Part shown: piece after piece, positions 30,431 through 55,673 of the stretch
Layout: each line of letters opens with the position of its first letter
How positions within the stretch are numbered: position 1 is the stretch's first letter
Source of the DNA: a virus
Virus record (IMG/VR): IMGVR_UViG_3300042731_008053
Reading direction: 5' to 3' (one strand)
Length of the DNA: 64,000 nt
Program-made: the position numbers and the translations under genes
The notes under the pieces: model-generated
The model's database searches: none
Told to the model about the DNA's origin: nothing
The model's input: the letters and a program-made list of their open reading frames with translations, nothing else

Positions 30431-30460
30431 GCGGTCAGGGCTGCAGTCGTCGAACGAGTT

Positions 30461-30676
30461 TCAGTGTCCGCTTTTGGGCTCGCTGGCACCAAACAACGTA
30501 TTCGCCGCAGCTTGGTGCAGTGCCATGACTTCGGCGTCTTCGATGTCGTAGACGTCGTTGCTGCCGCAGAAAGGGCACGTTGTTCGGTTTACGTGATTGT
30601 GTTGACGTCGCTGCTCAGCATTGTCACCACCAAACCATTTGAAGCTGTACCAACGGTTGACGCGTTGACGCGGCAT
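30461..30676 (-). CDS. hypothetical zinc-ribbon protein
   Basis: ORF track; CPFCGS. Confidence 0.4.
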   Translation of the reverse strand: MPRQRVNRWYSFKWFGGDNAEQRRQHNHVNRTTCPFCGSNDVYDIEDAEVMALHQAAANTLFGASEPKSGH

Positions 30677-30804
30677 TTTGTTTTGTTGAGTTCCATGATT
30701 ACTGGCTGGAGTGTACCGTCTCGGGATTACAGGCCCGAGCGCCTTCTATCGATTGTAGGACGATTCTTCCGGCGCCAGGAAAATGCGGTAGTAGCCGGGC
30801 TCAG

Positions 30805-31020
30805 TCACGCCGCACACTCGTTACGAAAACGGACTTTGCAGCTGCCGCAACGGTAGATAGGCCAGTAGATCAGCGTTACGTGTTGTTGGCTTTTGCAGCG
30901 CGGACAGTCAACCTGCTCTTCGATGATTGCGGGGGTGTGTCTTTTCATGGTTCCTTTTTCGGTTCTCAGGCGTTTTTTGCGCTGTCTCATCGGGGTGGTC
31001 GAGCGTTCCGTGTGTCTCAC
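30805..31020 (-). CDS. hypothetical zinc-ribbon protein
   Basis: CPRC...CGSC. Confidence 0.4.
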   Translation of the reverse strand: MRHTERSTTPMRQRKKRLRTEKGTMKRHTPAIIEEQVDCPRCKSQQHVTLIYWPIYRCGSCKVRFRNECAA

Positions 31021-31023
31021 CAG

Positions 31024-31455
31024 CTAGGAGGATGAGCGCTCCTTGAGTTGTTCTTCCAGTCGTTTCGCCTTTTCGATGTAGTGTTCCAGTTCGACTTGTG
31101 CGTCACGCAACGCGTAGCCGACGTCCCAAAACTCGGTGTGCTTGGAGTTGAGACATTTTCCCGCGTAGCTTACCAGTCGTTGCATCAGCGCCGGACTGTC
31201 GTCGCCGGGAGTGAACTCGGGTGTGGGGGCGACTTCTTCTTGATGGTCCCACAAGGGCGCTAGTACCCAGCACCAGTGGTTTGTCTCAGCAACATACCCT
31301 TCCATGCTGCCGTCTTCTCCGCATGTAAGGCACGTCCGCTCTTGTCCAGACGTCCACACGTCATCGACGCAGTCGATCGCGCCGCACATCCCACAGTGAA
31401 CATAGGGCGGTGCAAGCACGAGCGCCGGTGGTGCCGTATTGCCTCGCTTGGACAT
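31024..31455 (-). CDS. hypothetical protein
   Basis: ORF track. Confidence 0.45.
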   Translation of the reverse strand: MSKRGNTAPPALVLAPPYVHCGMCGAIDCVDDVWTSGQERTCLTCGEDGSMEGYVAETNHWCWVLAPLWDHQEEVAPTPEFTPGDDSPALMQRLVSYAGKCLNSKHTEFWDVGYALRDAQVELEHYIEKAKRLEEQLKERSSS

Positions 31456-31724
31456 CAGTCGTAGTAGCCGTGGTACGCAAGACGCCGAGGCGCCTTCTCA
31501 GGATCTGCTCGTTCCAGGCGCCGTCGGAGGCGGTGCGTTTGTTGTTTGACCGTTTTGCGGCTACCGCCTCGATAGGGTCCTTTGCGCCCAATCTGTTCCG
31601 CTTTCAGTGCCATAGAGGAATCGTACAGTAGATGGATTCGATCAGACACTCCTTTTCGGCTACTTCTTCTGGTCTTGTTCATACAGTTTCCCAAGACGTT
31701 CGTAGTGTCTCTGAACAACACCAT
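31455..31724 (-). CDS. hypothetical basic protein
   Basis: ORF track; start uncertain. Confidence 0.35.
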   Translation of the reverse strand: MVLFRDTTNVLGNCMNKTRRSSRKGVSDRIHLLYDSSMALKAEQIGRKGPYRGGSRKTVKQQTHRLRRRLERADPEKAPRRLAYHGYYD

Positions 31725-31917
31725 TGCGCACCATTTCCAACGAGGCTATCGCGTTGTTTTTCAAATATTCTTCGAGGACCGTGAGAGCGTCCTTGGCGTG
31801 CTGAAATGCTGCCAACTCCTCAGCGACAGCGTCGAGGAAGGGTTGTTCGATCTCGATCGGTTTTCGGATGTCTATTGGCGGTTTGGGTGCCTTACGAAAA
31901 GGGTGCCACATCAACAT
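31660..31917 (-). CDS. hypothetical protein
   Basis: ORF track. Confidence 0.4.
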   Translation of the reverse strand: MLMWHPFRKAPKPPIDIRKPIEIEQPFLDAVAEELAAFQHAKDALTVLEEYLKNNAIASLEMVRNGVVQRHYERLGKLYEQDQKK

Positions 31918-32993
31918 TCACCGTCGTCTTGTCTGAGCGGCTCCTCAAACGACACGCGAAGACGATCAATGATCGCGTCAAGTTTGTTAGCCAGTTCTTC
32001 TTGGCCGTGTTTCATGAGTGGGACCCACACGTCGTCATGGAGTTCGAGACGTGCTTGTTCGACCGTTAGATGTACGTCTTCCATCTTCTCATCGTGCTGC
32101 TCAAGTCGTTCAACGGCGACTAGGATGTTCTGCACATCCTGCTCACGAACAACAAATGATCGGTCACGACACACTGCCCGGTAGTATTTGGCGAATTTAC
32201 GCAAGGCGCGTAGATCAACGGTACCATCATGGTTTCTGGGTTTCGGCTGACATGATCGATGGTCGTCGAGCCATTCTCTCAGTGTTTCGTTGTCCATCTC
32301 GATAGCGCAAAACGCGTCGTCCCCCGAACAGTGAAAGCCCGCAGCGTGAACGTTGACGGGGCTTGAAAAGTACAGCGCCGCGTAGTCGGACGAACTAGGT
32401 TTGTGATCGAGGCGGTTTTTGTCCTTTCGGTTCTTTTCATGAGCGTGCTCGTCGATAAGGTGCTGCACGACGATCTGGCAAAGATTGCTGGCGGTGTTCA
32501 TCAACGCATACATTTCGCCCCGAAGTTCTCCCCGCACGTACGAGTGTTCGGGGGCCGCCTCACTCGCTTGCCGTTTTTCTTCTGCAGTGCCTTCAACCGT
32601 TTTGATCAAGGCTTGCAACCGTTCTAACAACGTTGCAGTGCTATTTTCCTTCAAAGAGCGTTGTATCTGCTGTGTCAAAAAGCGTCGTACCTGCTGCGCC
32701 AAAAACTCCGTCGTGAACTCGGCTTCAGTAAGCGTTTGTCCCGTGGCGTCCACCCACGCTTGCGCATACTCGCGTCGCGCGGCCATCAAGCCGTCGGCGT
32801 AACGCTGCTCGTGTGCACGCTCTATCTCCATTTGCAGACCCGCGACTTGGTGTTCGAGCGAAGCAACGGCAGCGTGCGCGTCGATCACCACGGCGTCTGT
32901 TTCCACAGAGGGCCCTTCGCCGCTCGAAACCATACGGTTAAGCATCGAGAGGGCTTGTGTGATCTTAGGTCCCCACGTTGTGTTGGTGGCCAT
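31911..32993 (-). CDS. hypothetical protein with N-terminal coiled coil (360 aa)
   Basis: ORF track. Confidence 0.5.
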   Translation of the reverse strand: MATNTTWGPKITQALSMLNRMVSSGEGPSVETDAVVIDAHAAVASLEHQVAGLQMEIERAHEQRYADGLMAARREYAQAWVDATGQTLTEAEFTTEFLAQQVRRFLTQQIQRSLKENSTATLLERLQALIKTVEGTAEEKRQASEAAPEHSYVRGELRGEMYALMNTASNLCQIVVQHLIDEHAHEKNRKDKNRLDHKPSSSDYAALYFSSPVNVHAAGFHCSGDDAFCAIEMDNETLREWLDDHRSCQPKPRNHDGTVDLRALRKFAKYYRAVCRDRSFVVREQDVQNILVAVERLEQHDEKMEDVHLTVEQARLELHDDVWVPLMKHGQEELANKLDAIIDRLRVSFEEPLRQDDGEC

Positions 32994-33264
32994 GCTGCAT
33001 GTCCTTTTCTCGTCGCTGCGCCCACGAGTCTCCTACGTGGTCCCGTAGCCACGTTCTGATCTCTTCGTGGTGTGCGGCTCCATAGTACCCAGCATGGCGA
33101 AGCGGACTGTACGGATAACAGCTGTGCACAAACCGGATGCGCCTGGCGTCAAGCCACGCTCGGAATTCAGTGATTACTTGTGCAGCCGCCTGGACCTCGA
33201 TGTAGACCAAGCGCGTGATGCGCCAACCTTCCTCAAACGGGCTCTCTTTATCTTCCATCGACAT
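32965..33264 (-). CDS. hypothetical protein
   Basis: ORF track. Confidence 0.4.
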   Translation of the reverse strand: MSMEDKESPFEEGWRITRLVYIEVQAAAQVITEFRAWLDARRIRFVHSCYPYSPLRHAGYYGAAHHEEIRTWLRDHVGDSWAQRREKDMQHGHQHNVGT

Positions 33265-33603
33265 TCATCCCAATCCGGCGTGCTCGGCCTCGAAGTGTAG
33301 CGGTCCAAACTTCACTCCGCCTGGACTGAACGCAAGGCACGCGATACCTTCCGCCAATGCGTTGAACGCTTTGGCTGTCTCGCCCTTCTTTTTGCTCCTG
33401 AATTGGATGATGTCTCCCTTCTCAGCAACCGTGTCACCGCACACGCGCGCACGCTCCTGGACGTAGTCGTAGGGCTTGCACTTGAGTTCTTCGATCCACA
33501 GAGGCACTGCTGCGCTCAGCGTAATGTAAAGCAAGTCTGCGTTCGGTCCCGAACGAAACGGGTGGTCGGCCTGTATAGGCTTGTAGCGCTTTTTACCGCC
33601 CAT
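33265..33603 (-). CDS. hypothetical protein
   Basis: Internal ATG overlapping the upstream stop. Confidence 0.4.
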   Translation of the reverse strand: MGGKKRYKPIQADHPFRSGPNADLLYITLSAAVPLWIEELKCKPYDYVQERARVCGDTVAEKGDIIQFRSKKKGETAKAFNALAEGIACLAFSPGGVKFGPLHFEAEHAGLG

Positions 33604-33847
33604 TGTGGTCCTCGTCGAGTGTTGCCAGGATTGCTCGAATCTCGTCGCCGCAGTCCATCTGTGGCGTTCTCCATCGACCATCGTGCCAGCGACGCGGCAG
33701 TTCACGTATACGCTCGATCACAACCCGTTGGCGTTCAATTACTGCCTGTAGGCGCTGTATCTTGCGATCCTTTGGGTCGCCTGTACAATTCCCACGAGGG
33801 GGTGGACCCGTACAGTCGCCGCCGCAAGTCAAACAGGGGTGTAGCAT
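33593..33847 (-). CDS. hypothetical Cys-rich protein
   Basis: Internal ATG of ORF 33593-33889. Confidence 0.35.
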   Translation of the reverse strand: MLHPCLTCGGDCTGPPPRGNCTGDPKDRKIQRLQAVIERQRVVIERIRELPRRWHDGRWRTPQMDCGDEIRAILATLDEDHNGR

Positions 33848-34194
33848 CAAGAACCCTTCCCGAGCAGCTTGCGCGCTGCATCGACCCATTCGTCCACGAC
33901 CTCAACTAGACCCGCGCGTGTGCCTTCGTGACCGGGGTAACCATAGTCGGCGATCATTTTGACAAACTCCTCGGCCTGTGCAGCATTCTGAGCCTTCCCT
34001 TCGAGCGAGACGCAGTGGCACTTCAATTGCTCAATCTCGTCCTCCAGCCGGCCGAGTTCTGTCAGCGCAGCAATCACGCGACCGCTAGAACGGAATTCCA
34101 GCTCAAATGGGCACCTTGTCGCGGTGCACGATGTTCCTGACAGTCCGCGCAGCTCCACCACATCCTCTGGACCCCAACGGGTGCTACCGCTCAT
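33847..34194 (-). CDS. hypothetical protein; N-terminus MSGSTRWG paralogous to the gene at 34441-34776
   Basis: ATGA overlap; first roughly 40 nt near-identical to the start of the gene at 34776. Confidence 0.4.
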   Translation of the reverse strand: MSGSTRWGPEDVVELRGLSGTSCTATRCPFELEFRSSGRVIAALTELGRLEDEIEQLKCHCVSLEGKAQNAAQAEEFVKMIADYGYPGHEGTRAGLVEVVDEWVDAARKLLGKGS

Positions 34195-34451
34195 CCGGTC
34201 ACCTCCCGTGAAACACCGCAGCATGTACACACCGTGCCGTTCTCGAACGAGCGTTCATAGCTGTGGCCGTGAAGCGCGCAGTACACGTGCTTACGGGCAC
34301 GACCTTGCTCAAGCAACTCGGTAGCAGTCGCGATCCGCTTGTCGCGTTCCGTAATTTCCCGTGTGAGCCACTTATTCTCGGCGCGCAGGCAAACCTCGCA
34401 GTGGTTAGCGTTGCCGGCCAGCGTGTGCGGGCACGTGCGTTCATCGGGCAT
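34191..34451 (-). CDS. hypothetical Cys-rich protein
   Basis: Internal ATG; CPHT..CEVC...CTCCG. Confidence 0.4.
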   Translation of the reverse strand: MPDERTCPHTLAGNANHCEVCLRAENKWLTREITERDKRIATATELLEQGRARKHVYCALHGHSYERSFENGTVCTCCGVSREVTG

Positions 34452-34776
34452 CAAAAAACCTCCCCCAGCGGACGCGCAACTCGCCAACAGTCTGGTCGCT
34501 CGGCGCCAGGTGCACCATGCGCTGCAAGCGCCGATGCTCAACGCATGCGCTATGTTTGGCCGCCACGTCAGCCGTCAACGCTTCGTTTTCGCGGTTGAGC
34601 CGCTGAACTTCCCTTCGCAGTACTTTGAAGGACTCCAACACCCGAGCGGCCCCCTCGCGGTCAGCGGCGCCCAGGGTCACGGTCGGGTGTTGCCGCAGTT
34701 CTTCAATCATGCGGTCAAGGTCGGCGTCACGAAACGCCGGACGCAAGTGGTGTCCCCACCGAGTGTTATCGCTCAT
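34441..34776 (-). CDS. hypothetical protein, N-terminus MSDNTRWG
   Basis: ATGA overlap; coiled-coil region. Confidence 0.4.
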   Translation of the reverse strand: MSDNTRWGHHLRPAFRDADLDRMIEELRQHPTVTLGAADREGAARVLESFKVLRREVQRLNRENEALTADVAAKHSACVEHRRLQRMVHLAPSDQTVGELRVRWGRFFDAR

Positions 34777-35023
34777 CAGAACCCTCCCCGCCGGGCGCAA
34801 GTTTTGCCAGTCGATCCTCTAAGCGCGCGAGGCTGTTGCCGCACCGTTCTAATTCGTCGCCGATACGGCGCAGGTGTTGAGCGATAGCATCGTTTGACGC
34901 AAGTCGCTCGCGATGTCGCTGCTCTTGCTGCACGCGCTCTAGGCGGTCTTGCCGCTGTTTGGGCGTCTCTATGGGCTCAACATCAACCCACCCATCATAG
35001 GGCCACGGATAGCCACCCGACAT
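34766..35023 (-). CDS. hypothetical protein
   Basis: TGATG overlap with the upstream gene. Confidence 0.4.
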   Translation of the reverse strand: MSGGYPWPYDGWVDVEPIETPKQRQDRLERVQQEQRHRERLASNDAIAQHLRRIGDELERCGNSLARLEDRLAKLAPGGEGSDER

Positions 35024-36351
35024 CAGGAACGCTCCCCGCCAGGTAGCACACCGACAGTCTCAGGGCCATACCGATGCCAATCTGCCAGTTGCAGCGGTAG
35101 GTCTTCGTCACATGTCCCACAATGCAACGACGCGCCACGTCCCTTGGGTGCATGGAGCGAGCCATCGTTTCCGATGCGGTGCTGAAGAACAGAGGCGTGC
35201 CCAGCAGAGCACATGACAAGACAGGATCCCCACGGATCAGGAAAATCTCCGCACCAGTTGTTGCGGTTGGACCAACACCACGATCGCGGTTCTTTTGTCT
35301 TGGAGTACTTCAACATCAGGAACTCTCCTCCGTCAGCACGCGCTTGCGACCCTCGGCTATGCGACGTGCCTCCTCGCGGCCGAACTGCTTGGCATCGATC
35401 ATTTCGGTCGCTCGGCAGCGGCGCGGGATCCGCCGGCTTTGCGAGAGTGGGAGCACTCGGCTGCACGAGATCGCGCAGCTCCTTGGCGGCCCGGCGCAAC
35501 CCCTCGGCAAATCCTTCATCCCGGGGGTCAAAGCATCGCTCGTGTTCGTCGGCGTCGTCCATCCCGCACTCGATCTCGTGCGCTTTGGCGTTCCACTTGG
35601 CGACCAAAGCACGCAGGGTGGTGGTTTGCTTCGGGGGGAAGTTTTGCTTCTCCGATTTATCGTCCTGTTGGACGCTGGGATCGTAGAAGCGCACCGTTAT
35701 CTCGCCAGCCTCCTCCAGCGGACGCCACTGGTTTTCAAAGCAGGGAGCGCACGCGTACACTCTCCTCGAACCGCGATCGGCGGCGGTTAGGTCGGTGACG
35801 ACGTACCACGCGCTCAACACGGCACCGCAGGAGCACGTGATGGTTTTGCCGTAAAGAGAGTCCCGTCGCTCGTGTACAGCACGATCGACCATCCGTTCGT
35901 CAGCTTCGCAAACGCCGAAGGCGTTGGCGTCCTCCGAAGAAGCAGCGTCGCGGGTCTTGTCAGCGGCTACTGACAGTCGGTGCGATGCTTGTACCCTCAG
36001 TCCGTGAGGCCAACGTTTCACGGTTGCGCTAGGTATGATGCACTCGACACCGGGCTCGGCTTTACATTCTGGGCATTCCACATCGAGTGGTGGTTTCGGC
36101 GGAGGAAGGTTGGTGCGCTTCGCGGCGTTTGCGAGTCGTTGACGCTGCGACCATGTCAGGTGCTGCCGATATGGCTCCAGGCGTTTGCGTAGCGCAACCT
36201 CGTTGTCGGTGATGACCTGACGCACGAGTTCATCGAGGTCGGCCGGTGGTTCCAGGTCGGTGAACGGCTCATCGTCGCTGACTGGCTGATCCCACGGCGA
36301 TCCGAGAGCAGTTTCGTTAATGAGAGTATTCTTTTCGTCGTCGTTACTCAT
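35023..36351 (-). CDS. hypothetical protein (442 aa) with Cys clusters; carries the AKPADPAPLPSDR repeat segment
   Basis: ORF track; 44-nt segment shared with the gene at 38721-39353. Confidence 0.5.
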   Translation of the reverse strand: MSNDDEKNTLINETALGSPWDQPVSDDEPFTDLEPPADLDELVRQVITDNEVALRKRLEPYRQHLTWSQRQRLANAAKRTNLPPPKPPLDVECPECKAEPGVECIIPSATVKRWPHGLRVQASHRLSVAADKTRDAASSEDANAFGVCEADERMVDRAVHERRDSLYGKTITCSCGAVLSAWYVVTDLTAADRGSRRVYACAPCFENQWRPLEEAGEITVRFYDPSVQQDDKSEKQNFPPKQTTTLRALVAKWNAKAHEIECGMDDADEHERCFDPRDEGFAEGLRRAAKELRDLVQPSAPTLAKPADPAPLPSDRNDRCQAVRPRGGTSHSRGSQARADGGEFLMLKYSKTKEPRSWCWSNRNNWCGDFPDPWGSCLVMCSAGHASVLQHRIGNDGSLHAPKGRGASLHCGTCDEDLPLQLADWHRYGPETVGVLPGGERS

Positions 36352-36355
36352 GCTC

Positions 36356-36565
36356 TCACCATTGCTTGATGTAGCCGTAGCCGGGACACTTGGGGCGGGG
36401 ACACTTCACACGCTCGTAACCGTCTGCGCCGCCTGTGTAGTCGGTGCCGTCGTGTCGCTGCACGTGCTCAGGCATATACTCAATCACGGCGCCGCACGCG
36501 CGACACTTCACCCGCCTGCCGGTGGGTGGTTCAACAATACGAGGAGGATTTTGTTCTTGGCTCAT
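36356..36565 (-). CDS. hypothetical zinc-ribbon protein
   Basis: CRACG...CPRPKCPG. Confidence 0.45.
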   Translation of the reverse strand: MSQEQNPPRIVEPPTGRRVKCRACGAVIEYMPEHVQRHDGTDYTGGADGYERVKCPRPKCPGYGYIKQW

Positions 36566-36585
36566 GGAATTTTCTCAGTGTTGCT

Positions 36586-36768
36586 CTAGTTGGACGAGCG
36601 CCGGATAAACAACGATACGCGTTGCTCGTGTGGCGCGCCTCGCTGCTGGCCGTAGTTCTTACCTCCCAGCTTGATGCAGCCTTGTCTCGGCTCAGCCCCG
36701 CAAACTGGGCAAACGGTCGTTCCGGTTGCATTCGCTGCGGTGGTTTTGTCCTGTTTCTTGTTGCTCAT
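36586..36768 (-). CDS. hypothetical zinc-finger protein
   Basis: CPVCG. Confidence 0.4.
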   Translation of the reverse strand: MSNKKQDKTTAANATGTTVCPVCGAEPRQGCIKLGGKNYGQQRGAPHEQRVSLFIRRSSN

Positions 36769-36983
36769 TTCTTACACCTCGGACAGCGAGCACGGTTTGC
36801 GCGTTTGTTGACGCTCCAGCCGGCAGCACGCGCAGCTCGGATGCACTCCGCCTCCGTGCGGCCAGTAAATTCGCCGAGGCCACGACCGAATGCTTCACCT
36901 TCATAGCAGGCACAATAAAGGTCCAGCGTGTAGCAACCAACAATACCGATACCGGTGTTGGGGTTTTGTTTGTTACTTGCCAT
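36765..36983 (-). CDS. hypothetical protein
   Basis: Internal ATG; CPRCKK at the C-terminus. Confidence 0.4.
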   Translation of the reverse strand: MASNKQNPNTGIGIVGCYTLDLYCACYEGEAFGRGLGEFTGRTEAECIRAARAAGWSVNKRANRARCPRCKK

Positions 36984-37149
36984 TGTTCGGAGAAGGCATG
37001 CGCGTGATTTCCCGTTCGTCGTGGACTGCACCACAACGACAATGCCAAAGCAGTGTTTCGATCTTGATCATGCGTACCAGGCCTGAACACCGCAAACAGT
37101 AGGGACTGTAGTTTGGATCGCGGGCAGCGTTTTGTTGGATGACATTCAT
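36973..37149 (-). CDS. hypothetical zinc-ribbon protein (58 aa, below the ORF-track cutoff)
   Basis: Manual translation MNVIQQNAARDPNYSPYCLRCSGLVRMIKIETLLWHCRCGAVHDEREITRMPSPNNGK. Confidence 0.3.
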   Translation of the reverse strand: MNVIQQNAARDPNYSPYCLRCSGLVRMIKIETLLWHCRCGAVHDEREITRMPSPNNGK

Positions 37150-37155
37150 CGCGGC

Positions 37156-37554
37156 TCACAGATAAGGTGCGGATAGTGTTGGGCAGTCGCCTCCGCACAT
37201 CCAAATGCCGTCGTGTAACCGCATTGCGATCATTGCTGTGCCTGCGACAACAATTTCTATGAGCAGTACGGCTATGAGCACTGCCAAAACAAAACCACTG
37301 ACAGGGTAATGCGAAGATCTAGTCCCATAGCGTGCCCAGTACCAGGCGCTTCGCAACCGAGAAGGACGTGGCTCGGACACCCAAAGATACGCGACGAAGC
37401 ACACGCCCATCCACGCAGCCATCGTAAGAGAAGCTACGTTTGTAGGACCAAGCATGACAAGGTCGAAAAGGTAGATCACGGCTGCCGTGATCATTCCGCT
37501 GTACCAAAACCGTGCACGGCGCCAAAAAGGTAGGCGGTTGTCATTCATAGGCAA
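37156..37554 (-). CDS. integral membrane protein (3-4 TM)
   Basis: Hydrophobic segments ITAAVIYLFDLVMLG, MAAWMGVCFVAYLWV, FVLAVLIAVLLIEIVVAGTAMIA. Confidence 0.5.
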   Translation of the reverse strand: MPMNDNRLPFWRRARFWYSGMITAAVIYLFDLVMLGPTNVASLTMAAWMGVCFVAYLWVSEPRPSRLRSAWYWARYGTRSSHYPVSGFVLAVLIAVLLIEIVVAGTAMIAMRLHDGIWMCGGDCPTLSAPYL

Positions 37555-37604
37555 ATCCAGCTCGGCACGCTGGGCAGCGTTGATCCTCTGTCATCGTATC
37601 GCCC

Positions 37605-38198
37605 TTAGCCATCTGTTTTCTTCCGATCAAACCGATCTGACAGCTGCCACAAAAGATCGATTTGGTCTGTAACAGCCTTTTTGGTCAGCCCCATAGCGCG
37701 GGCGGTAACCACGAGCAGAGTCGTTAGTGGCGGTGCGGTGTAATCAGGTGCGTACCGATCAACAACGCTACGCAACTCAGCGTTGATTTGATCTTTGAGT
37801 TGGGTTTCGCTCAGGCCTGGTTCTGCCGAGATGGAGTACCCCAAGTCGTTCGCGACGTAGCGAAACAACGTCTCGTTGACGACCTCTTCAGCGGAGCTTT
37901 TTCCTGCAACAATGTCAGCGCAGCTTTGTCGAAATGCCGCGAGACGCTCCAGGTGATCGGCTGCTTGATGTTGGTACGCAACCAGCTCAGGAAGCAGCAC
38001 TGGATCAATTTCGTCTCCGGGTACTACCTTGGTATTGGCAGCACGAAGAAATTCGATGCAGCGGTCGATCGTAAAACGATGGGGCGTCTGTTTGTGAGGC
38101 GGATGATCTTCGTAGAGCTGGTTGCAATGCGTGCAGTGTGTGCATGCATCGTTGTCAGGTGCAAAGACAGGACAGTCAGCGAGAGGGACGAGTGCCAT
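37605..38198 (-). CDS. hypothetical protein
   Basis: ORF track. Confidence 0.5.
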   Translation of the reverse strand: MALVPLADCPVFAPDNDACTHCTHCNQLYEDHPPHKQTPHRFTIDRCIEFLRAANTKVVPGDEIDPVLLPELVAYQHQAADHLERLAAFRQSCADIVAGKSSAEEVVNETLFRYVANDLGYSISAEPGLSETQLKDQINAELRSVVDRYAPDYTAPPLTTLLVVTARAMGLTKKAVTDQIDLLWQLSDRFDRKKTDG

Positions 38199-38203
38199 GG
38201 CGA

Positions 38204-38416
38204 TTACGATTCCTTTGTAGCGTCGAGTTGGCGTCGCCAGTACTCATCAAGAGTGACGCCACCGTCGCCAACCGGTTTGGAACAAGGATTTGCCAGCTCG
38301 CCCCACCCTCCAGGAACTTGGTCGGTCGCTCCACAGTTGACGCATACTTCATCGTACGTGGAAGCGCCCCACGAAAAACGAGTGACGTGACTCGGGTGTT
38401 TTTGGCCGTACATCAA
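38204..38416 (-). CDS. hypothetical protein
   Basis: ORF track. Confidence 0.4.
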   Translation of the reverse strand: MMYGQKHPSHVTRFSWGASTYDEVCVNCGATDQVPGGWGELANPCSKPVGDGGVTLDEYWRRQLDATKES

Positions 38417-38721
38417 TACAAGTCGTTTTCCGGATCGTTTTCGTTCATCGATAAACCTTCCCCCCTGGACGCGAGCAGTGCATCGATCTCACGTATTAGG
38501 CGCGCTTGTTCGCGCTGCCCTCTGCGCCTCCGTTCACGCTCCTCCTGTTGCCGCTTCTTGCGTTCAGCGTACTCCCCAGACGCAATCTCGTTGGCGCGTT
38601 CCTGTGCGGCAGCGAGTCGTTCGGCCGCCACGGCGTGGCGCCGCGCCACCGCCGCTTGGCGATTCAACGCAGCAGCTTTGCATGTTTCGACCCATGACTG
38701 CTCAGCGTCCCAGCTTCGCAT
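38413..38721 (-). CDS. hypothetical Arg/Glu-rich coiled-coil protein
   Basis: ATGA overlap. Confidence 0.4.
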   Translation of the reverse strand: MRSWDAEQSWVETCKAAALNRQAAVARRHAVAAERLAAAQERANEIASGEYAERKKRQQEERERRRRGQREQARLIREIDALLASRGEGLSMNENDPENDLY

Positions 38722-39353
38722 CAGGAACCCTCCCTGCGCGCCTGCTCGGCTACGATCCACCCATCGAGGACCGCAGCGATTTCATCGTTCGTGATCGTGC
38801 CGGCGCGGATGGTATCGCGAAGCAGTTCGATCTCGGCATTGTCGGCCACACGCTCGGCGCGCCAGCGCTGAACCTCCCCCTCAAGCTCGATGATTCGATC
38901 GACGTGGGCCGCGCACGTGATGCAAACGTCACTGCCACCCACAGTCATCGGTTTGTCGTCGCGCAGGTGAAGAGTCGCCATCGCATGTGCCGCCGACACC
39001 GCGACATCCGGATCACGTTGACCAGTGCTGGTCTTGTCTCGGTCGCTCGGCAGCGGCGCGGGATCCGCCGGCTTTGCGGGAGTGACCGACAAGGCGTACT
39101 CGGTCCCCAGTGCTGCTGCGTCGAGCCTAAAGATCCAAGACCGCAGATGTCCGTGTACTGCCCCCAGTGTTGCGGCCCACTCGACCCACTGATCCGTTCC
39201 GTGAGCGGGCGGCTGGGCCAGGTCGAACGCTCGCCGAATCGCCATCGCAAGCTCGACACGGGTAGGTGGTTTGTTCTGGAGGACGTTTGTCTTGTCGTGT
39301 TTGGGCATTTTGATGCGTTCTGATAGAGGTGGCAGCATCAGGTATGACTCCAC
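38721..39353 (-). CDS. hypothetical protein carrying the AKPADPAPLPSDR repeat segment
   Basis: ORF track; start uncertain (alternative 39308). Confidence 0.45.
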   Translation of the reverse strand: MESYLMLPPLSERIKMPKHDKTNVLQNKPPTRVELAMAIRRAFDLAQPPAHGTDQWVEWAATLGAVHGHLRSWIFRLDAAALGTEYALSVTPAKPADPAPLPSDRDKTSTGQRDPDVAVSAAHAMATLHLRDDKPMTVGGSDVCITCAAHVDRIIELEGEVQRWRAERVADNAEIELLRDTIRAGTITNDEIAAVLDGWIVAEQARREGS

Positions 39354-39742
39354 TGTTGGTACGCCTCGAACGTTGGCTGACCATAACCTGCCTTGACGAG
39401 TAACTCGATCCAGGTCGGCAGCTTGTACTCAGCCTTTTCGTAGATGAGATCTTCGGGCTCGATGGTTGCCGACGGGACACAGTATTTGACGTCCGACCAG
39501 TAGCGGCCTCGTGCTGAAGGGCTGAGTTTCATGTCCTGACGCGTAAACCGTTCGACCAGACGCAGGTCTTTGACCAGACCCTGGCAGAAATAGAATTGTT
39601 GTTGTTGGAGCACGTGCAGTTGCTTTGCTTGTTGCGCTTTTTCGCGCCGTTGGTCTTCGACGGTAACCGTCACCCAGTAGAGCGTTCCCAATAATGCTGC
39701 GAGTACGGCTACGGGGGCAGCGTAGAACAGTGCCGGTTTCAC
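39338..39742 (-). CDS. hypothetical protein with N-terminal TM/signal segment
   Basis: GTGA overlap; PALFYAAPVAVLAALLGTLYWV. Confidence 0.45.
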   Translation of the reverse strand: MKPALFYAAPVAVLAALLGTLYWVTVTVEDQRREKAQQAKQLHVLQQQQFYFCQGLVKDLRLVERFTRQDMKLSPSARGRYWSDVKYCVPSATIEPEDLIYEKAEYKLPTWIELLVKAGYGQPTFEAYQQWSHT

Positions 39743-41172
39743 TTGGTGTCCTTCGGCATTCCACGAACACGTGGACCTGAGGATCCCTCGGTGAGCATAT
39801 CGCGTAGGTTGACGCCTTTGAGGCCTTTGTCGAGGTTGATCTCGATGACCTTCGCGCCTCCGGTGGCGCCTTGCGTTTTTGCGATAGCCAACTCTTCCAT
39901 GTCGTTGTCAATCCAACGGACGAACCACGTTGTCATCAATTCGGCCTGCGCTGCAAACAGTTTGCGGCGCTTTTCGTTTCGTACCCGACGATCGTGGACG
40001 TGGCTTTTGGACCAGTGGTTGGTCTCCCAGTAGCCGCCGTCATTTTTGAGTCCTGGACCGGATGGGTACCGATTCGTGAACGGCTTGTCGTAATCGTACG
40101 CTCGATCTGGATCCGTTTTGCGGATGCGGGCTTCTTCGGCCTGGAACTTTTGAAGCGGTGTGATGTCGTTTTCGCACAGGGCCAGACGGCGCTTGCCTTT
40201 GTAGGTGAGCCACACGGCTTGTTGGGTCGTGCGGTGTTTGCCTTGTTTGCCGACCGCATTGACCTGCTGCTCGTAGCGAGCAATGAGGTTTTTGATTTGA
40301 CCTTCGTAGTATGAGATGTCGAGTTTGGCTGCGCGAAGATACGCGTAAAGACCAAGTAACTGGATGTCATTGAGCGTACGTAACTCGGCGCTAGCTTCGG
40401 AAACCCATGCGGCTGTCTTGTTCTGGACGTGTGTGAGGAACTCGCTGGGTTTGGTGTAACGCAACATCGCATTGGACGCTGCCGTACGGGCGCTACGTCC
40501 CAAGCCGCTCAACGTCATCGACACGACGTCTTTGCGAACGGCGTATCGGGTTGCTGCTTCTTTCAACGCGTAGCTGTCACCGTATCGTGCAAGCGGTTTG
40601 ATGCGTTGTAGAATCTTGAGTGCGGGTGCGCCAAGACCCCGCGAGGCAACAGTAAAGACGATGCCGAAGATCATCTTCCAGCCTTTGCCTTTGACCTTGA
40701 GCAGCTTCGACCGCTCGATGTTGTCTACGGCTTGACCGAACTGGTGCAACATGATCGTAAGTTGTATTCCGATTCGCCGCGCATACTCTTGGCGTTCGTC
40801 GGCGGTCAGCAGGCAGGTGAGACCTTCGTCGCCTGGCTTGCAGGCAAACGCCGTGTCGTCGCCGTTCCCTTTCGGCGTGAGCGCACCACCAAAGACGTCA
40901 GGGACCGGGCCCGAAGGCTTGGTTGGTTTTGCTGGCCTAGCTGCGCCAGACACCTTGGGAGGTCGTTTGGGAGGCGCGACGCTGCCATACCGCGTACGTG
41001 TGGTGTTGCCCTTCCCCGCTGAGCGGCTTGGTGTGTACTCGTTGAGGCCGATATTCCGGCCGGCGATTCGTGGGCGGCGATCGCTGTGTTGGCTTTCGTC
41101 TGACATCGCCCTTGTTACGACCGCGTCACGGCTGAGCTGCCTTCGAGGTGCGTCTTTTTCTCGTGGTCGCAT
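39739..41172 (-). CDS. hypothetical protein (477 aa), first gene of the - block leaving the 41.2-42.0 kb intergenic hub
   Basis: ORF track; Pro/Lys-rich N-terminal region. Confidence 0.5.
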   Translation of the reverse strand: MRPREKDAPRRQLSRDAVVTRAMSDESQHSDRRPRIAGRNIGLNEYTPSRSAGKGNTTRTRYGSVAPPKRPPKVSGAARPAKPTKPSGPVPDVFGGALTPKGNGDDTAFACKPGDEGLTCLLTADERQEYARRIGIQLTIMLHQFGQAVDNIERSKLLKVKGKGWKMIFGIVFTVASRGLGAPALKILQRIKPLARYGDSYALKEAATRYAVRKDVVSMTLSGLGRSARTAASNAMLRYTKPSEFLTHVQNKTAAWVSEASAELRTLNDIQLLGLYAYLRAAKLDISYYEGQIKNLIARYEQQVNAVGKQGKHRTTQQAVWLTYKGKRRLALCENDITPLQKFQAEEARIRKTDPDRAYDYDKPFTNRYPSGPGLKNDGGYWETNHWSKSHVHDRRVRNEKRRKLFAAQAELMTTWFVRWIDNDMEELAIAKTQGATGGAKVIEINLDKGLKGVNLRDMLTEGSSGPRVRGMPKDTK

Positions 41173-41470
41173 CGCACGAGGCGTGGTGGATCGCTTATGC
41201 TAGAGGTGTTCACGGCCTGCCTTCCTCAGGTAGTGGACTCGCGGCGGTGCGCGTCCAACGTGCCGCCGCACTTCGTTGAGGTCCCAGCGTAGCGAAGCGT
41301 GCTGCCGGAATCAACCGTCGAACGGTGTTTCGAGCTGTCGCGCGCTTTAACCTCGTTTCAACAGGTTACAGTGCTGATCACGAAAACCTGAGTGATTACT
41401 TCTTGGTACAACAACACCAAGAAAAAAGTACGCAGTTTCAGTGAGCTACGCTCGTCGCTCGATCCGTCGA

Positions 41471-41739
41471 GGGGGGATCTACTGACATCTAACGGACTTC
41501 TAACTGAACCTTGATCTATGAAATTACTGAGGAAAAGGTCGATTTAAGTAGATCCCCCCCTCTCCTATTCCCCCACAGTTTCGGCCTTCATTTATTCTAT
41601 TTATCTATCCATGGATAAATACTTGTCGGATCTTTTAGTATAAAGGGGGGATCTACTTCTACTAAATAAGCTTCAGATCGCTAATGTTGCAAGCACTTAA
41701 GGCGAGTAGAAGTAAATATAATGCCAACGAGGATCTACT
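41471..41739. repeat. Iteron cluster: GGGGGGATCTACT (41471-41483), inverted copy AGTAGATCCCCCCC (41547-41560), GGGGGGATCTACTTCTACT (41645-41663), GAGTAGAAGTA inverted partner (41704-41714), GGATCTACT (41731-41739)
   Basis: Read directly from the sequence. Confidence 0.7.
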
Positions 41740-41820
41740 TTTTTTGTTGTGTAACACACAGCCGAAAAACGGCGAGATCGACTGTTTTGTGGTGAAGAGT
41801 ACGTTTCACTATTCAAAATC

Positions 41821-41940
41821 GGGCCTGCATTGGGCCTGCATAAGGCCCAACCGGGCCTGTATACATCCCCGTCAGGGCCTGCATACGGGCCCAACCGGGG
41901 CCCGACTGGGCCCAATTCGGGCCCAATTGGGGCCCAACTG
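41821..41940. repeat. GC-rich degenerate tandem array: GGGCCTGCAT x3-4 followed by GGGCCCAAYYGG x5
   Basis: gggcctgcattgggcctgcataaggcccaaccgggcctgtatac...gggcctgcatacgggcccaaccggggcccgactgggcccaattcgggcccaattggggcccaactgg, immediately upstream of the RHH-AP2 regulator gene. Confidence 0.7.
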
Positions 41941-41990
41941 GGACCGTTTATGCATAAATTGTCAGCGCTGGGGTGTATAACGAGGGGGAT

Positions 41991-42587
41991 ATGACACAGC
42001 AACGCAAATTCAACGTTTTACCGGAGCTGTACGCCTATCTGGAAGAACGTGCGGAACGCAATTTTCGTAGTGTTAACAACGAGCTAAACGCGATTCTGGC
42101 AATGCTGCAGACGCAAGATCAGCGCACGACGGCGCCCACGCAGCCTATGGCGACCGTCACGCCCCTGTTCGGCAACCCGACAGAGCCGTCAGACGAGCAC
42201 GGTCCCAAACGCGGTCCCCTAAACACCATTAGCGGCTACAGGGGCGTCTATCCGTACGGCAAGCGCTGGAAGGTCGTCGTGTACGAAAACGGCCGCCAAC
42301 GCCGCCTGAGCGCCTACGACACGCCTCAAGAAGCAGCCCTGGCCTACGACGCCTACGTTCGTGCGCTCGACCCCCAGGCGCCGCTGAACTTCCCCGACGC
42401 AAACGAGGTCAGTGTTGCCGACACCGACGAAATCGCGATCCGCCCCGAGGCGCTCGCTGCTATTGAGCAAGGGCCCGTCCAAGAAGCACCCTTCCCCGAT
42501 TTCGAGGATGTGTCGCCCCCCTTCGATTTTGAGAACCCGCCACCAGGCATTGTCCGCCGACCCCGTGACTCCAGTGATCTGGACTGA
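41991..42587 (+). CDS. transcriptional regulator: N-terminal ribbon-helix-helix (Arc/CopG-like) plus AP2 DNA-binding domain
   Basis: KFNVLPELYAYLEERAERNFRSVNNELNAILAML (RHH pattern); ISGYRGVYPYGKRWKVVVYENGRQRRLSAYDTPQEAALAYDAYVRAL (AP2 pattern). SD GAGGGGGA upstream of ATG 41991. Confidence 0.6.
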   Translation: MTQQRKFNVLPELYAYLEERAERNFRSVNNELNAILAMLQTQDQRTTAPTQPMATVTPLFGNPTEPSDEHGPKRGPLNTISGYRGVYPYGKRWKVVVYENGRQRRLSAYDTPQEAALAYDAYVRALDPQAPLNFPDANEVSVADTDEIAIRPEALAAIEQGPVQEAPFPDFEDVSPPFDFENPPPGIVRRPRDSSDLD

Positions 42588-47241: not shown

Positions 47242-47545
47242 GAGCGTATCGTATCACAGCGCCTGAAAAGTCTGTGTGGGCGCCCCCGATGGGTGGTCGA
47301 GGGCGCCGGGGTGAGCAGTGTTGCCAACCGGGCAGGTGGGCAGCCGGATCACCGTCGGCCAGTACAGGTCTACCAAATTTGTACTACTTGACGCAAATAA
47401 ATCCCCCGCAACACCCCGAAAGGCGTTCACAACCCGTTGCTTTGTTGTAGTACTTCAGCGTAAGCTGGGCTGTCAAAAAAGTGCGGCGACACGCTAGAGA
47501 CGCATCGCCGCGAAGCCCACAAACCTGATCGGAGGTCGTGAACTG

Positions 47546-49432: not shown

Positions 49433-49779
49433 TAGTTGTTTCCTCCAAGAAGGTTTTCGGCTAGCTGACACGCATCGCAGGAGCACGGACCACTGAGGGG
49501 GAAACGGTATCGATGATTGCGCAGCATAGCCGCCAGGGCCCCGCGCAGTTCCTCGGTCTCAGACAATACAGCCTCGTCGATCAGCTTCTGGATGGCCGAT
49601 GTTGCTGCCTGTGCAGCCTCGTCGGTTGAGTCCTCAGCATAAATAGCGTCGGTGAGATCCAGGATCCGTCCGACCGTGATCGACTGCTTTTCCACGTCTT
49701 CTACCGTAGCATTCAAGCAGGTAAACTCCCTATGGATTCTTGGGTCAGGCACGTGTCGGGTAAAAAGAGTCGCTGGCAA
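49432..49779 (-). CDS. hypothetical protein
   Basis: ORF track. Confidence 0.4.
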   Translation of the reverse strand: MPATLFTRHVPDPRIHREFTCLNATVEDVEKQSITVGRILDLTDAIYAEDSTDEAAQAATSAIQKLIDEAVLSETEELRGALAAMLRNHRYRFPLSGPCSCDACQLAENLLGGNN

Positions 49780-51496
49780 AGTAAAGGTTGTTGCGCTTCT
49801 CGACTAGCTTGTTCGATGTCAGTGCAGACAAATAGTTAGCGAACGTAGAGGACCGCGTCGAATGTCCAGCGGCCTCTGCAATTTCATTTCGACCCATTCC
49901 CTGGGGATAACACTCAACGAGCAGCCTGAGCATCGTCTTGGCGTTTCCCGGCAGTTTGGGTAACCACAACTCCAGCAATCGTTGAGTCGTCATGACGGGT
50001 ACAGTGTCGCGACCACCGACTGCATCAAGACCTGTTTTGGTCAGGACGTAAGGCGCGTTTCGGCCGCCGTCAATGTATCCGGCCGTACGCAACGTCGAAA
50101 GGTAGTTGTTGAACGTGCTCGACTTGATGCTGAAACCCGACAAGGTGGACACCTGGCTACGTGTCAACGGGGTGGGGTGCAAAGACGCAATGGCCATGAG
50201 GATCTTGGTTGGGCCGCTTCCCAATCCGTTGGGCTTAGGTGTTGAGGACGCAACGCTAGTTTCGACTGTTGGTGATGGCGCTGGAGGTTTTGCGACACCG
50301 TTAGAGCGTTTGGGGACTGCGGAACTACGCGGCGGTGTCGATGTCGATGAAGGTGAGCCCAGTTGCACGCCGGCCTCATGCAGGGCGCTGCGGATCGACA
50401 TGATTGTGTCCTGAACGACCTGACCCATTCCGTGCAACCTGTCTATCGCGTGCTTGAACTGACGCATCTGATCGTCGGTAATCACTGGGACCGCTACCTG
50501 CTCGACGTCAGTGACACGAGTTGCAAGCTCGTTCTTCAGTCGAGACACAGTAGCCTGCGCCGACGACAAGAGTTTGCGAAGGTGCTGCGGATCGCGTTGT
50601 TTTGCTGCCTCAATGGTTTCAGCCATCGCCGCCGACATGGCGTCCAGATCGATCTTGGCGAGCTTTCGCTTGGGCTGTTTGGTGCCAGCTTTTGGTGTCG
50701 CTGAGGTATCGGCTGTGCGCTTTTTGGCGATTTTCACGCGGCCGTAAAAATCAAGCCACTGAGGGCTCCACACGATAGCAGTGCCCGTCGGCAGCTTCGT
50801 AATCACAGCCGCGTCCGCGTCGTGGATTCCCTTATCAGCGATCCACTCTTTGATCGCCTTGCGCTCGTGTGGACCTGTCATCTGGAAGGCGAACAAACAC
50901 TCCGTCTGATTCAGGACGTCCTTGTTGACCTTCTGCGGACGTTGCGAAATGAGCGACACGCCAATGCCGTAATTGCGGCCCATCAACGTCAAATCGCTCA
51001 CGGCGCCAAGCAGACGCTCATCGCCGCCAAGCACTCGCTGTGGAACGAAGTGTTGCGCTTCGTCGATGATCACGTGCAGGGCCGAAGGGGCGTCTTTCTT
51101 TTTGTGGAACAACTCTTCAGCGAAATCGACGACGAACCGTTTGCGGTCGTTTTTGCGAAACCGGCTGAGATCGATGACCATCGACGTGCCCGTTTTGACG
51201 ACAAAATCCGCTACGACGGTACCGCCCGTCGGTTCGAGCGGAATATCTCCGTTGGCGCCACCGAGCACGGGGATCGAGTAGCCGGGCTTGCCGTTTTCGA
51301 GTGTACGTAAGCCCCACCAGTTTCCTACGGGGTCCAAAACAACAACCTGAGTACCAATATCAAGAAGCTCTTCAGCGAGCTTTCCGCACGCATAGGTCTT
51401 GCCGCTACCTCTGCGTCCCATAAACGCGAACGTCTGGGTGACAGCGTCGGTCGGAAGCTTCAGGTTTCGTGCAAGATTAATGGTTCTCTTCTTCAT
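49745..51496 (-). CDS. FtsK/HerA/VirB4-superfamily P-loop ATPase (DUF87/AAA_10-like) with two C-terminal winged-helix repeats
   Basis: FAFMGRRGSGKTYACGKL (Walker A) followed by VVVLDPVGNWWGL; HVIIDEAQHF (Walker B); two repeats of ...TRSQVSTLSGFSIKSSTFNNYLSTLRTAGYI / ...GRNEIAEAAGHSTRSSTFANYLSALTSNKLV (wHTH-like). Confidence 0.65.
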   Translation of the reverse strand: MKKRTINLARNLKLPTDAVTQTFAFMGRRGSGKTYACGKLAEELLDIGTQVVVLDPVGNWWGLRTLENGKPGYSIPVLGGANGDIPLEPTGGTVVADFVVKTGTSMVIDLSRFRKNDRKRFVVDFAEELFHKKKDAPSALHVIIDEAQHFVPQRVLGGDERLLGAVSDLTLMGRNYGIGVSLISQRPQKVNKDVLNQTECLFAFQMTGPHERKAIKEWIADKGIHDADAAVITKLPTGTAIVWSPQWLDFYGRVKIAKKRTADTSATPKAGTKQPKRKLAKIDLDAMSAAMAETIEAAKQRDPQHLRKLLSSAQATVSRLKNELATRVTDVEQVAVPVITDDQMRQFKHAIDRLHGMGQVVQDTIMSIRSALHEAGVQLGSPSSTSTPPRSSAVPKRSNGVAKPPAPSPTVETSVASSTPKPNGLGSGPTKILMAIASLHPTPLTRSQVSTLSGFSIKSSTFNNYLSTLRTAGYIDGGRNAPYVLTKTGLDAVGGRDTVPVMTTQRLLELWLPKLPGNAKTMLRLLVECYPQGMGRNEIAEAAGHSTRSSTFANYLSALTSNKLVEKRNNLYFASDSFYPTRA

Positions 51497-52987: not shown

Positions 52988-53016
52988 TTGGGTCTCCTTG
53001 TCAGGGGGTCTACTGG

Positions 53017-55602: not shown

Positions 55603-55673
55603 TGATCACCTCCGTGATCGGATTATCACGACAGCATAACGTATCGCAAACGAATTACCGATCGTCGTCTGTC

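Follow-up and report, generated by a model that had tools for sequence, protein, structure and literature searches.

In iteron-type cassettes that combine an origin with a replication gene (ori-rep), such as P1 oriR/repA and pPS10, the cis-acting site lies 5' of a gene whose product binds DNA. Plant and apicomplexan transcription factors have made AP2 domains famous; in bacteria and phages, to our knowledge, these domains are known from homing endonucleases only. A third arrangement is that of parC of plasmid R1, which serves as a type II partition centromere and as an autoregulatory operator. Its 11-bp iterons, in two sets of five, lie on either side of the promoter and each bind one ParR dimer cooperatively, repressing the promoter in an autoregulated system (PMC2241845). 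In this study, we compared with these systems a non-coding gap, hereafter the hub, in a 64,000-nucleotide stretch of viral DNA (IMG/VR record IMGVR_UViG_3300042731_008053; the window, to which all coordinates refer unless a relative is named). The hub lies directly upstream of a gene for a protein with an AP2 domain and a likely ribbon-helix-helix (RHH) domain, which we call RHH-AP2.

The hub resembles ParR-parC in having roughly ten direct repeats, at a spacing of one helical turn (11 bp), directly 5' of the gene for a protein that is likely of the RHH type; as with omega of pSM19035, ParG-parH and Arc/Mnt of P22, a putative RHH protein is paired with a candidate repeat operator whose repeats are specific to the protein lineage. 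The hub differs from ParR-parC in that its operon has no ParM or ParA motor, in the additional AP2 DNA-binding domain of the protein and in an extra 0.4-kb conserved AT-rich dyad core upstream; unlike in R1 parC, the array is not split around a recognizable promoter, and most relatives have no large array. With the iteron cassettes (P1 oriR/repA, pPS10, F and RK2) the hub shares repeats and an AT-rich stretch immediately before a gene whose product binds DNA, and inverted repeats near the gene start that could serve autoregulation; short repeats flanking an AT-rich stretch are also found in the SaPI and P4 origins, and the repeats of the hub, like those of P1 oriR and oriC, contain GATC. Unlike the proteins of those cassettes, RHH-AP2 has no winged-helix Rep, primase or helicase domain, and unlike iteron origins the hub has conserved sites 76–98 bp apart in mixed orientation, has no DnaA boxes and carries its regular array in the non-conserved part.

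A non-coding module upstream of the RHH-AP2 gene

Comparison of the lineages indicates that a genuine non-coding control module, conserved in evolution, occupies the gap; the strongest sequence evidence for it comes from the distant members of the family. Close relatives with a homologous RHH-AP2 gene (39–52% identity) were L003/L088, L087 and L005/L089, while the distant relatives L008, L237, L238 and L242 encode RHH-AP2 proteins 30–37% identical to that of the window; two further loci, L001 and L002, are identical to the window (metagenomic contig; JGI 3300035128, Logan SRR11696381). The conserved core was recognized in seven lineages (the window, L003, L087 and the four distant relatives), L010 being a separate distant homologue, and in all seven an AT-rich non-coding region of 330–640 bp lies directly 5' of the RHH-AP2 gene. 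In the four distant lineages this region measures 330–420 bp and has a GC content of 49–52% in loci of 62–63% GC, and the motifs AAAACCTGAGTGAT, CTCCTAT, the AT-rich centre, the site-3 block, TTCAG.T.G.TAG and GCCGAAAAAC are colinear with those of the window. L237 also has a homologue of the 820-aa protein encoded at 55740–58202.

The sequence-only reading of this DNA had described a hub at 41173–41990, between two divergently transcribed major gene blocks, and had called it an origin or regulatory centre. The divergent setting is true of the window, but it is not conserved: the left neighbour of the hub is the divergent block in the window, a small minus-strand gene in L003 and a co-directional gene of ~245 aa in the L008 type. 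Homology of the hub with L003 and L087 begins only at ~41383. When positions 28400–41200 were compared with 8466–9361 of L003, the one relative with a comparable left flank, the 12.7-kb minus-strand block (dnaG, a zinc-finger protein and many small ORFs) was found to be missing in L003, and the L087 contig terminates exactly at the right-hand homology boundary (window 41385), suggesting that the left edge of the hub is a module junction or carries an indel polymorphism. The differing left neighbours, together with the absence of the dnaG block from L003, indicate that the hub belongs to the RHH-AP2 gene and not to a divergent junction or to dnaG. A module that accompanies the RHH-AP2 gene in seven lineages, whatever its left neighbour, agrees with the term regulatory centre; the block of dnaG, the gene that had been taken as a pointer to an origin, is missing next to the homologous hub of L003.

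The gap and its features are real, extending over 0.8–0.9 kb from the boundary of the leftward gene (41106 or 41172) to the rightward start codon at 41991, and its left border possibly lies at 41107 instead of 41173, because the annotation of the Joint Genome Institute (JGI) begins the leftward gene at 41106. The 455- or 477-aa product of that gene had no match in Pfam, PHROG, NCBIfam or PDB, and positions 41107–41382 presumably serve as its leader or promoter region. In repeat density the hub is one of the two top 400-bp stretches of the window, the other being at 53.0 kb. A small conserved ORF within the hub was considered and rejected, since the ORFs vary by lineage; the 98-aa ORF of the JGI annotation (41684–41980) reads through the GGGCC repeats, has no counterpart in the relatives and is most likely a spurious gene call.

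All the hub features listed in the earlier reading were recovered, shifted by a few bases at most, and are non-random. The 13-mer GGGGGGATCTACT occurs exactly three times in the 64 kb, always in the hub, at 41471 (+), 41547–41559 (−) and 41645 (+), and no further copy was found in the 64 kb even when two mismatches were allowed (0.41 expected). The fourth copy claimed, at 41731, is partial, consisting only of the 9-mer GGATCTACT (79% of the 14-mer), which is found five times in the window, four of these in the hub (0.13 expected). The conserved sites are 12–14 bp long and follow each other at 76, 98 and 82–84 bp, in the orientation forward, reverse, forward, forward; the distance between sites 1 and 2 is 76–77 bp in the window, L003 and L087. 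With such spacings and mixed orientation they are not the regular iterons that had been proposed, a class with at least three regular, helically phased direct repeats of ~17–22 bp.

The inverted pair that had been claimed, TACTTCTACT / AGTAGAAGTA (41651–41663 / 41705–41717), is 13 nt long and 92% complementary, and sites 2 and 3 form a perfect 14-nt inverted repeat with arms 85 nt apart that was matched in 0 of 60 shuffles. The AT-rich centre is enclosed by inverted repeats 85–95 nt apart, whose arms differ in sequence from lineage to lineage; significance was reached in the window (14 nt, perfect) and L238 (21 nt), with 0 of 60 shuffles each, and the repeats of L242 and L237 are suggestive. 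In agreement with this, a hidden Markov model of the core matched its own reverse complement in nhmmer searches (L087, 1e-7; L003, 0.008; window, 0.057). The AT-rich segment between the arms, which the earlier reading had also pointed out, contains the lowest-GC 40-mer of the window (41587–41626, 23% GC against a mean of 57%), the lowest-GC 80-nt and 200-nt windows of the 64 kb also fall in the hub, and the homologous spot is the GC minimum of the L003 locus as well. An AT-rich centre of ~25–45 bp is kept in all seven lineages, with variable sequence.

Conservation is concentrated in short blocks. ACCTGAGTGAT, part of the left-border motif, is exact in L087, whose contig begins two bases into the 14-mer, and in L008, whose copy is the full 14-mer AAAACCTGAGTGAT (746–759), and that of L003 is near-identical; by our own estimate, the chance of one 14-mer common to two such regions is ~0.003. 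The same 14-mer had at least 120 matches in IMG/VR, which we attribute to chance because none is near an AP2 gene. In the window, L003 and L087 the invariant blocks of the core (8–22 nt) comprise CTGAGT, GGGGGATCTACT, CTTCTAAC, TAGATCC.CC followed by TCCTATTCC, GGATCTTTT, GGGGA.CTAC.TCTA and T.TAATGCC, and the number of 10-mers in common is 34 between the window and L087 and five between the window and L003 (~0.5 expected). The site-3 block, A.TAG.GG..GGA.C.A, has a homologue in L003, L087, L008, L237, L238 and L242, and GCCGAAAAAC is shared with L008 and L238 and occurs in a close version in L237. The sequence of the T(A/T)TAATGCC block at 41717–41725 looks like a −10 element. GATC is present within every hub site, with nine occurrences in 400 bp against 3.1 at the density of the window itself. 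Over the window as a whole the frequency of GATC is 7.8 per kb, roughly double the 3.7 per kb that base composition predicts; the maximum (11 per 400 bp) is reached at the divergent intergenic region 55603–55739, which is dense in GATC and CGATCG and has a possible promoter, TTGATT-N17-TAAGTT, directly 5' of a start codon without Shine–Dalgarno sequence.

Between the core and the RHH-AP2 gene, the GC-rich tandem repeats reported at 41821–41940 consist of 11–12 GGGCC-type units with a period of 10.9 bp, four being GGGCCTGCAT(A/T) and six to seven GGGCCCAAYYG, with one non-repeat 11-mer at 41864–41874. Ten of the 12 matches to GGGCCYRNNT in the window fall in 41821–41939, Tandem Repeats Finder returned a period of 11, and autocorrelation peaked at lags 11 and 21–22, higher than in every shuffle (0.43–0.45 at lags 11 and 21, compared with 0.36 for the 95th percentile of shuffles). 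The array ends ~40 bp 5' of the RHH-AP2 ATG, and the palindrome at its end is perfect, as had been noted.

These proximal repeats turn over between lineages. The sequence of the GGGCC array is not conserved in L003, L087 or L005: L003 has GTTGACA inverted repeats and two copies of CAGTCCATGC, L087 has two copies of TTGGCGTAC at 22 bp, and in L005 two copies of CGCAAGGT at 11 bp were read by eye where the repeat finder gave no direct repeats. L010 has an independent array of at least 11 tandem 11-bp units of GTGTGCACTAA 5' of its RHH-AP2 gene, as well as three 11-bp units of TTGACAGCACG, with the repeats <260 bp from the start codon. Phased arrays reached significance in the window and L010 and were marginal in L003, and six other lineages had none; large phased arrays are recurrent without being universal.

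A second hub, the most repeat-dense spot of the window (Table 1), contains GGGGGTCTACT, four GGTCTAC sites and a 13-bp unit, GGGTGCCGACCGG (which includes GCCGAC), repeated seven times in an array that ends ~30 nt before the start codon. Its homologue in L003 has only two 11-bp units of the GCCGACCGGG type and no GGTCTACT. The second hub may be part of the same regulon as the hub at 41 kb.

The GGTCTAC motif appears again in a non-coding, divergent intergenic stretch at 47264–47400, which contains a GGGCGCCC...GGGCGCC hairpin, CAACCGGGC and AGGTCTACCAAATT. In this stretch the identity to L003 reaches 90.6% and that to L005 81%, well above the 66–77% of coding DNA; it had no Rfam match, and covariation was uninformative because the pairs are almost invariant. 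It may be a non-coding RNA or a key cis site.

Table 1. Coordinates of the hub, its components and related features
Feature	Position	Strand	Description
Leftward gene	39739–41106	−	455 aa (477 aa if start 41172); first of the minus-strand block at 28.5–41.2 kb that includes dnaG
Left section of gap	41107–41382		Normal GC content; lineage-specific, not conserved in relatives
Left-border motif AAAACCTGAGTGAT	41383–41396	+	Start of conserved core
Site 1, GGGGGGATCTACT	41471–41483	+	Followed by 11-bp tandem pair GACATCTAACG / GACTTCTAACT at 41484–41504
Site 2, inverted 13-mer copy	41547–41559	−	Followed by invariant TCCTATTCC at 41563–41571
AT-rich centre	41587–41626		Dyad TATTTATC (41598–41605) / GATAAATA (41614–41621) around palindrome TATCCATGGATA (41606–41617)
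Site 3 block	41628–41663	+	GGATCTTTT (41628–41636), site 3 GGGGGGATCTACT (41645–41657), repeat TCTACT
AGTAGAAGTAAAT	41705–41725	+	Inverted partner of ATCTACTTCTACT; overlaps conserved T(A/T)TAATGCC block
Site 4, GGATCTACT (partial)	41731–41770	+	Seven-T run, two small hairpins, GCCGAAAAAC (41761–41770)
Helically phased array	41821–41951	+	11–12 units, mean period 10.9 bp
Perfect palindrome TTTATGCATAAA	41948–41959		TGCATA in common with first array unit type
RHH-AP2 gene	41991–42587	+	198 aa; Shine–Dalgarno-like GAGGGGGA at 41982–41989
Second hub	52988–53190	−	5' of minus-strand peptidoglycan-hydrolase/HerA-ATPase operon

The RHH-AP2 protein and its operon

The RHH-AP2 protein consists of an N-terminal strand and two helices, an AP2 domain at residues 80–130, a disordered tail and the C-terminal peptide PPGIVRRP. 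By itself, the AP2 domain scored 25.9 bits in Pfam, below the cutoff of 33.3 bits, while Pfam AP2 matches 18 of the 22 family members, and a four-sequence profile searched against PDB matched WRI1 (8.6e-8), TEM1 (3.6e-7) and AtERF1 (3.6e-4). In an AlphaFold2 model built with 22 homologues, residues 81–130 had a predicted local distance difference test score (pLDDT) >90 and superimposed on 1gcc_A, the GCC-box domain of AtERF1, with a root-mean-square deviation of 1.3 Å over 58 columns and a template-modelling (TM) score of 0.76. The modelled domain is of the AP2/ERF type, with a three-stranded antiparallel sheet on one helix and YRG/RAYD-type elements.

The N-terminal strand, K-I-T-L-S-L-P, is basic and alternating and precedes two helices. 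Pfam RHH families matched the window protein below threshold (FitA-like, 0.0043; Arc, 0.0056), and three of the 22 family members matched the FitA-like RHH family, at best with 3.3e-6. In the AlphaFold2 monomer the N-terminus is an unstructured basic segment followed by helices at 11–23 and 28–47 (pLDDT >90), and a Foldseek search with the model did not retrieve RHH structures. From its sequence, the N-terminal domain is likely an RHH domain. Its putative DNA-reading strand residues vary by lineage, and the AP2 strands are conserved.

The AP2 domain has the same three-stranded sheet and helix as those of plant AP2/ERF proteins and of phage and bacterial HNH homing endonucleases, and its occurrence in phage-encoded proteins has been described (Magnani et al. 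2004, as cited in PMC5318435). Unlike in the AP2 homing endonucleases, it is joined to a likely RHH domain for dimerization and DNA binding and to a conserved C-terminal peptide, without HNH, GIY-YIG or NUMOD. No such nuclease domain was found in the 198-aa protein or in the 22-member family, and the matches of RHH-AP2 to PHROG 'HNH endonuclease' cover the AP2 part only; an AP2-HNH homing endonuclease was rejected for this reason, and the domain architecture indicates a regulator and not an endonuclease. The GC-rich units GGGCC and GCCGAC recall the cores of the plant GCC-box and DRE, which is a resemblance only.

The family has ~20 full-length members in a collection of 5.8 billion proteins. 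All keep the C-terminal peptide after a disordered acidic linker, as PPGIVRRP in the window type and RRQLRRG.GP.I.RP in the L008 type, and it is likely a docking motif for a partner. We found no description of an RHH-AP2 fusion in the literature searched; the fusion and its conserved upstream core appear to be undescribed so far. Neither the 230-aa nor the 159-aa protein encoded downstream has a P-loop, and the one family match among them is to PHROG 2693, of unknown function. Domain scans of RHH-AP2 and its operon did not find Rep, DnaA-like or helicase-loader domains, nor did those of the operon find ParA, ParM or TubZ-type proteins.

Operator, origin and other readings of the hub

We consider it about an even call that the hub is a two-layer promoter/operator serving the RHH-AP2 gene and the rightward operon that begins with it, where the phased repeats would be bound cooperatively, much as by ParR at parC or by Arc. 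Which protein binds where, the sign of regulation and the position of the promoter we infer as follows. Layer 1 (41383–41770) would be an old conserved AT-rich core, carrying half-sites for a protein in direct and inverted orientation around the AT-rich centre, which most likely holds the promoter and in some relatives might also hold the terminator of the upstream operon. Layer 2 (41821–41959) would be a fast-evolving operator made up of the 11–12 GGGCC-type units and the TGCATA palindrome, just 5' of the ribosome-binding site. With one unit per helical turn, all units would lie on one face of the DNA; RHH-AP2 dimers would bind them cooperatively, the RHH ribbons entering successive major grooves and the AP2 domain supplying a second DNA contact, and the resulting filament-like complex would repress or gate transcription into its own operon. 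RHH-AP2 itself or a partner protein, bound at the half-sites that surround the AT-rich centre, would bridge or wrap the promoter DNA, and the hub of similar style at 53.0 kb may be a further target of RHH-AP2.

That the proximal repeats vary with the protein lineage supports an operator, as judged from sequence, and by analogy an array of one-turn repeats directly 5' of a putative RHH gene would be the classic operator layout. Helical-turn direct repeats immediately 5' of the protein's own gene, as at ParR/parC, are found in the window and independently in L010. A second hub in front of another operon fits a multi-target regulator better than a unique origin.

Several observations weigh against the operator model. 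The 0.4-kb core is recognizable between lineages whose proteins are down to 30–36% identity, which is more constraint than is usual for an autoregulated promoter, and the large array, not being universal, cannot be the core function of the module. The RHH assignment consists of sub-threshold matches and a monomer model. A sigma-70 scan called no promoter in the hub, the consensus possibly not being that of the host, and promoter and terminator calls in the relatives are weak and inconsistent; in L237, facing terminator-like hairpins lie at two half-sites and a weak promoter lies in the AT-rich centre. A promoter at this position would mean an unusually long leader, ~340 nt in the window. Finally, an origin would account better for the AT minimum, for the dyad symmetry and for a conservation of unusual depth.

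On present evidence, an origin is nevertheless the weaker option, which we regard as possible but clearly less probable than a regulatory centre. The core would be the origin, its dyad half-sites loading an origin-binding protein on both sides of a melting AT-rich centre, and RHH-AP2 would be that protein, autoregulating through the proximal repeats as the Rep proteins of iteron plasmids do; in an alternative form, transcription from the hub would activate the origin, as in the T7 and T4 origins. The C-terminal peptide, conserved in all RHH-AP2 proteins, would bring in a helicase or primase. Both the 64-kb window and the L003 locus reach their highest AT content at the hub, where 41587–41626 has the composition of an AT-rich unwinding element; the hub has 12–14-bp sites in both orientations around this centre, a core that matches its own reverse complement, inverted repeats 85–95 nt apart with lineage-specific arms, and GATC embedded in each site and enriched overall. 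Consistent with an origin are also the ori-rep layout, with the cis site directly 5' of the gene for a DNA-binding protein, and the standing of the module as a core feature of a virus family whose other replication genes come and go.

An origin at this place would, however, need an unprecedented initiator, and none of the tests made here supports it directly. Neither RHH-AP2 nor its operon has a Rep, DnaA-like or helicase-loader domain, and instead of a known Rep, helicase or primase gene the neighbours are RHH-AP2 itself and proteins without family match. The sites are few, wide and irregular in spacing and of mixed orientation. No DnaA, IHF or CtrA boxes are conserved across the window, L003 and L087, and oriC-type 13-mers in the hub were rejected for lack of conservation. 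Cumulative GC skew, which had been suggested as a check, gave no usable signal, with extremes near 9 and 31 kb, a tiny amplitude and no inflection at the hub, and the AT skew of the window tracks the direction of transcription. The dnaG gene (28568–30430) is a solid assignment (Pfam, 1e-35), but it lies 11 kb away and its block is missing beside the L003 hub. The gene at 2507–4135, 37 kb away, had been called a VirE-like NTPase; we found a P-loop protein, weakly similar to ORC-CDC6-like proteins (8.7e-5) and to the helicase part of phrog_47, of the primase-helicase type (9.8e-8). A comparable hub of motifs plus array stands at the start of a second operon, and the GATC density is matched elsewhere (11 in 400 bp at 55.6 kb).

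We think it somewhat less likely again that RHH-AP2 and the dyad/AT-rich core form a new self-contained cassette, either origin-initiator or motor-less centromere, of an uncharacterized family of HerA-packaging viruses.

A centromere-like segrosome site, or another site of nucleoprotein assembly such as packaging, is in our view unlikely. Here the RHH protein would coat the array as ParR coats parC, and its C-terminal peptide would link the complex with a motor whose gene lies elsewhere or which the host provides. The 11–12 units of 11 bp in front of a likely RHH gene closely mimic R1 parC, and the C-terminal peptide resembles the motor-contacting tails of centromere-binding proteins; as a lead only, the forward-reverse-forward pattern of sites recalls lambda cosB and P1 parS. 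Membership in the centromere class fails because the operon has no motor, neither a ParA, ParM or TubZ-type protein nor a P-loop, and the array is missing in most relatives, whereas all of them would need a centromere. Moreover, the element looks lytic-type, with a HerA-type packaging ATPase 8 kb away. As for a packaging site, the contigs of L004, L005, L006 and L087 end at differing points in or near the hub, with no defined physical terminus, and a genome terminus in the hub was rejected on the same grounds. An attP site was also rejected, no integrase being present among the proteins scanned, which cover part of the ORFs.

A structured RNA (a small RNA, a riboregulatory 5' untranslated region or a thermosensor) formed by the core or by a long leader that includes the GGGCC array is very improbable and was rejected for lack of covariation: the array folds far better than shuffles (z = −4.5), as expected because its GGGCCC units are self-complementary, and the core does so modestly (z = −2.5, plus strand), and the stem of sites 1 and 2 accommodates a G-U pair on the plus strand only, but Rfam gave no match at gathering scores, only weak sub-threshold ones such as a ROSE-like match of 27 bits against a threshold of 45, the RNAalifold covariation terms, for which positive values are unsupportive, were +1.22 (three lineages) and +0.19 (four lineages), the four L008-type leaders have no common fold (consensus −1.85 kcal/mol), the array is not conserved between lineages, and the conserved blocks are primary-sequence motifs separated by variable spacers.

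The element and the meaning of the module

Hardly any protein of the window had a family match in Pfam, PHROG, NCBIfam or PDB scans, a DNA search of deposited phages with the window gave no match, and the best matches of its DnaG in known phage records are <40% identical. The genes that could be assigned include a full-length DnaG primase, a HerA/FtsK-type ATPase, a peptidoglycan hydrolase, IF3, an RF-1-like protein and a peptide deformylase, and we infer that the element is a virus of an uncharacterized group, lytic-type in look. No terminal overlap was found in the window plus 6.6 kb beyond its right end (78-kb parent contig).

The HerA/FtsK-type ATPase (49745–51496; DUF87; PHROG 2666 'terminase large subunit') carries a winged-helix-like repeat at its C-terminus and is 71–73% identical to the L003 protein; in L005 the ATPase gene is missing from the syntenic place. 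Its more distant relatives (35–56% identity) are found on IMG/VR contigs of 18–110 kb and in metagenome-assembled genomes of several phyla, in which the ATPase is the sole gene in common and hub-like sequence was not found. IMG/VR scans with the RHH-AP2 protein, its 477-aa neighbour and two hub DNA patterns retrieved no relatives. A search with the AP2 motif yielded 80 metagenome loci, most of which have the AP2 domain only and no other gene in common with the window.

The translation-related genes lie at 22563–23099 (IF3), 25781–26425 (RF-1/PCRF-like protein) and 54494–55174 (peptide deformylase), IF3 being 87% identical in amino acid sequence to its L003 counterpart, and a MazG-like pyrophosphohydrolase is encoded at 21999–22541. 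An 881-aa protein (7489–10134) matches the Major Vault Protein shoulder domain (5.5e-26) and the vault repeat (7.6e-11), domains that are unusual in a prokaryotic virus-like element.

The case of this hub indicates that iterons, an AT-rich stretch and a nearby dnaG are insufficient for calling an origin. If the core were an origin after all, it would point to a new class of initiator, and in a self-contained cassette AP2 would be the origin-recognition module and the PPGIVRRP / RRQLRRG..P.I.RP peptide would recruit the replisome. The combination of AP2 with a likely RHH domain in ~20 or more viral proteins, each encoded 3' of a related 0.3–0.6-kb non-coding module, represents a new protein architecture, whose probable DNA targets are the GGGCC, GTGCAC and GGATCTAC units. 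Since this is an AP2 protein of a prokaryotic virus with probable targets at hand, the specificity of both its AP2 and its RHH domain is directly testable by simple binding assays. Whether regulatory or possibly replicative, the hub offers a first entry point to an almost entirely unannotatable virus.

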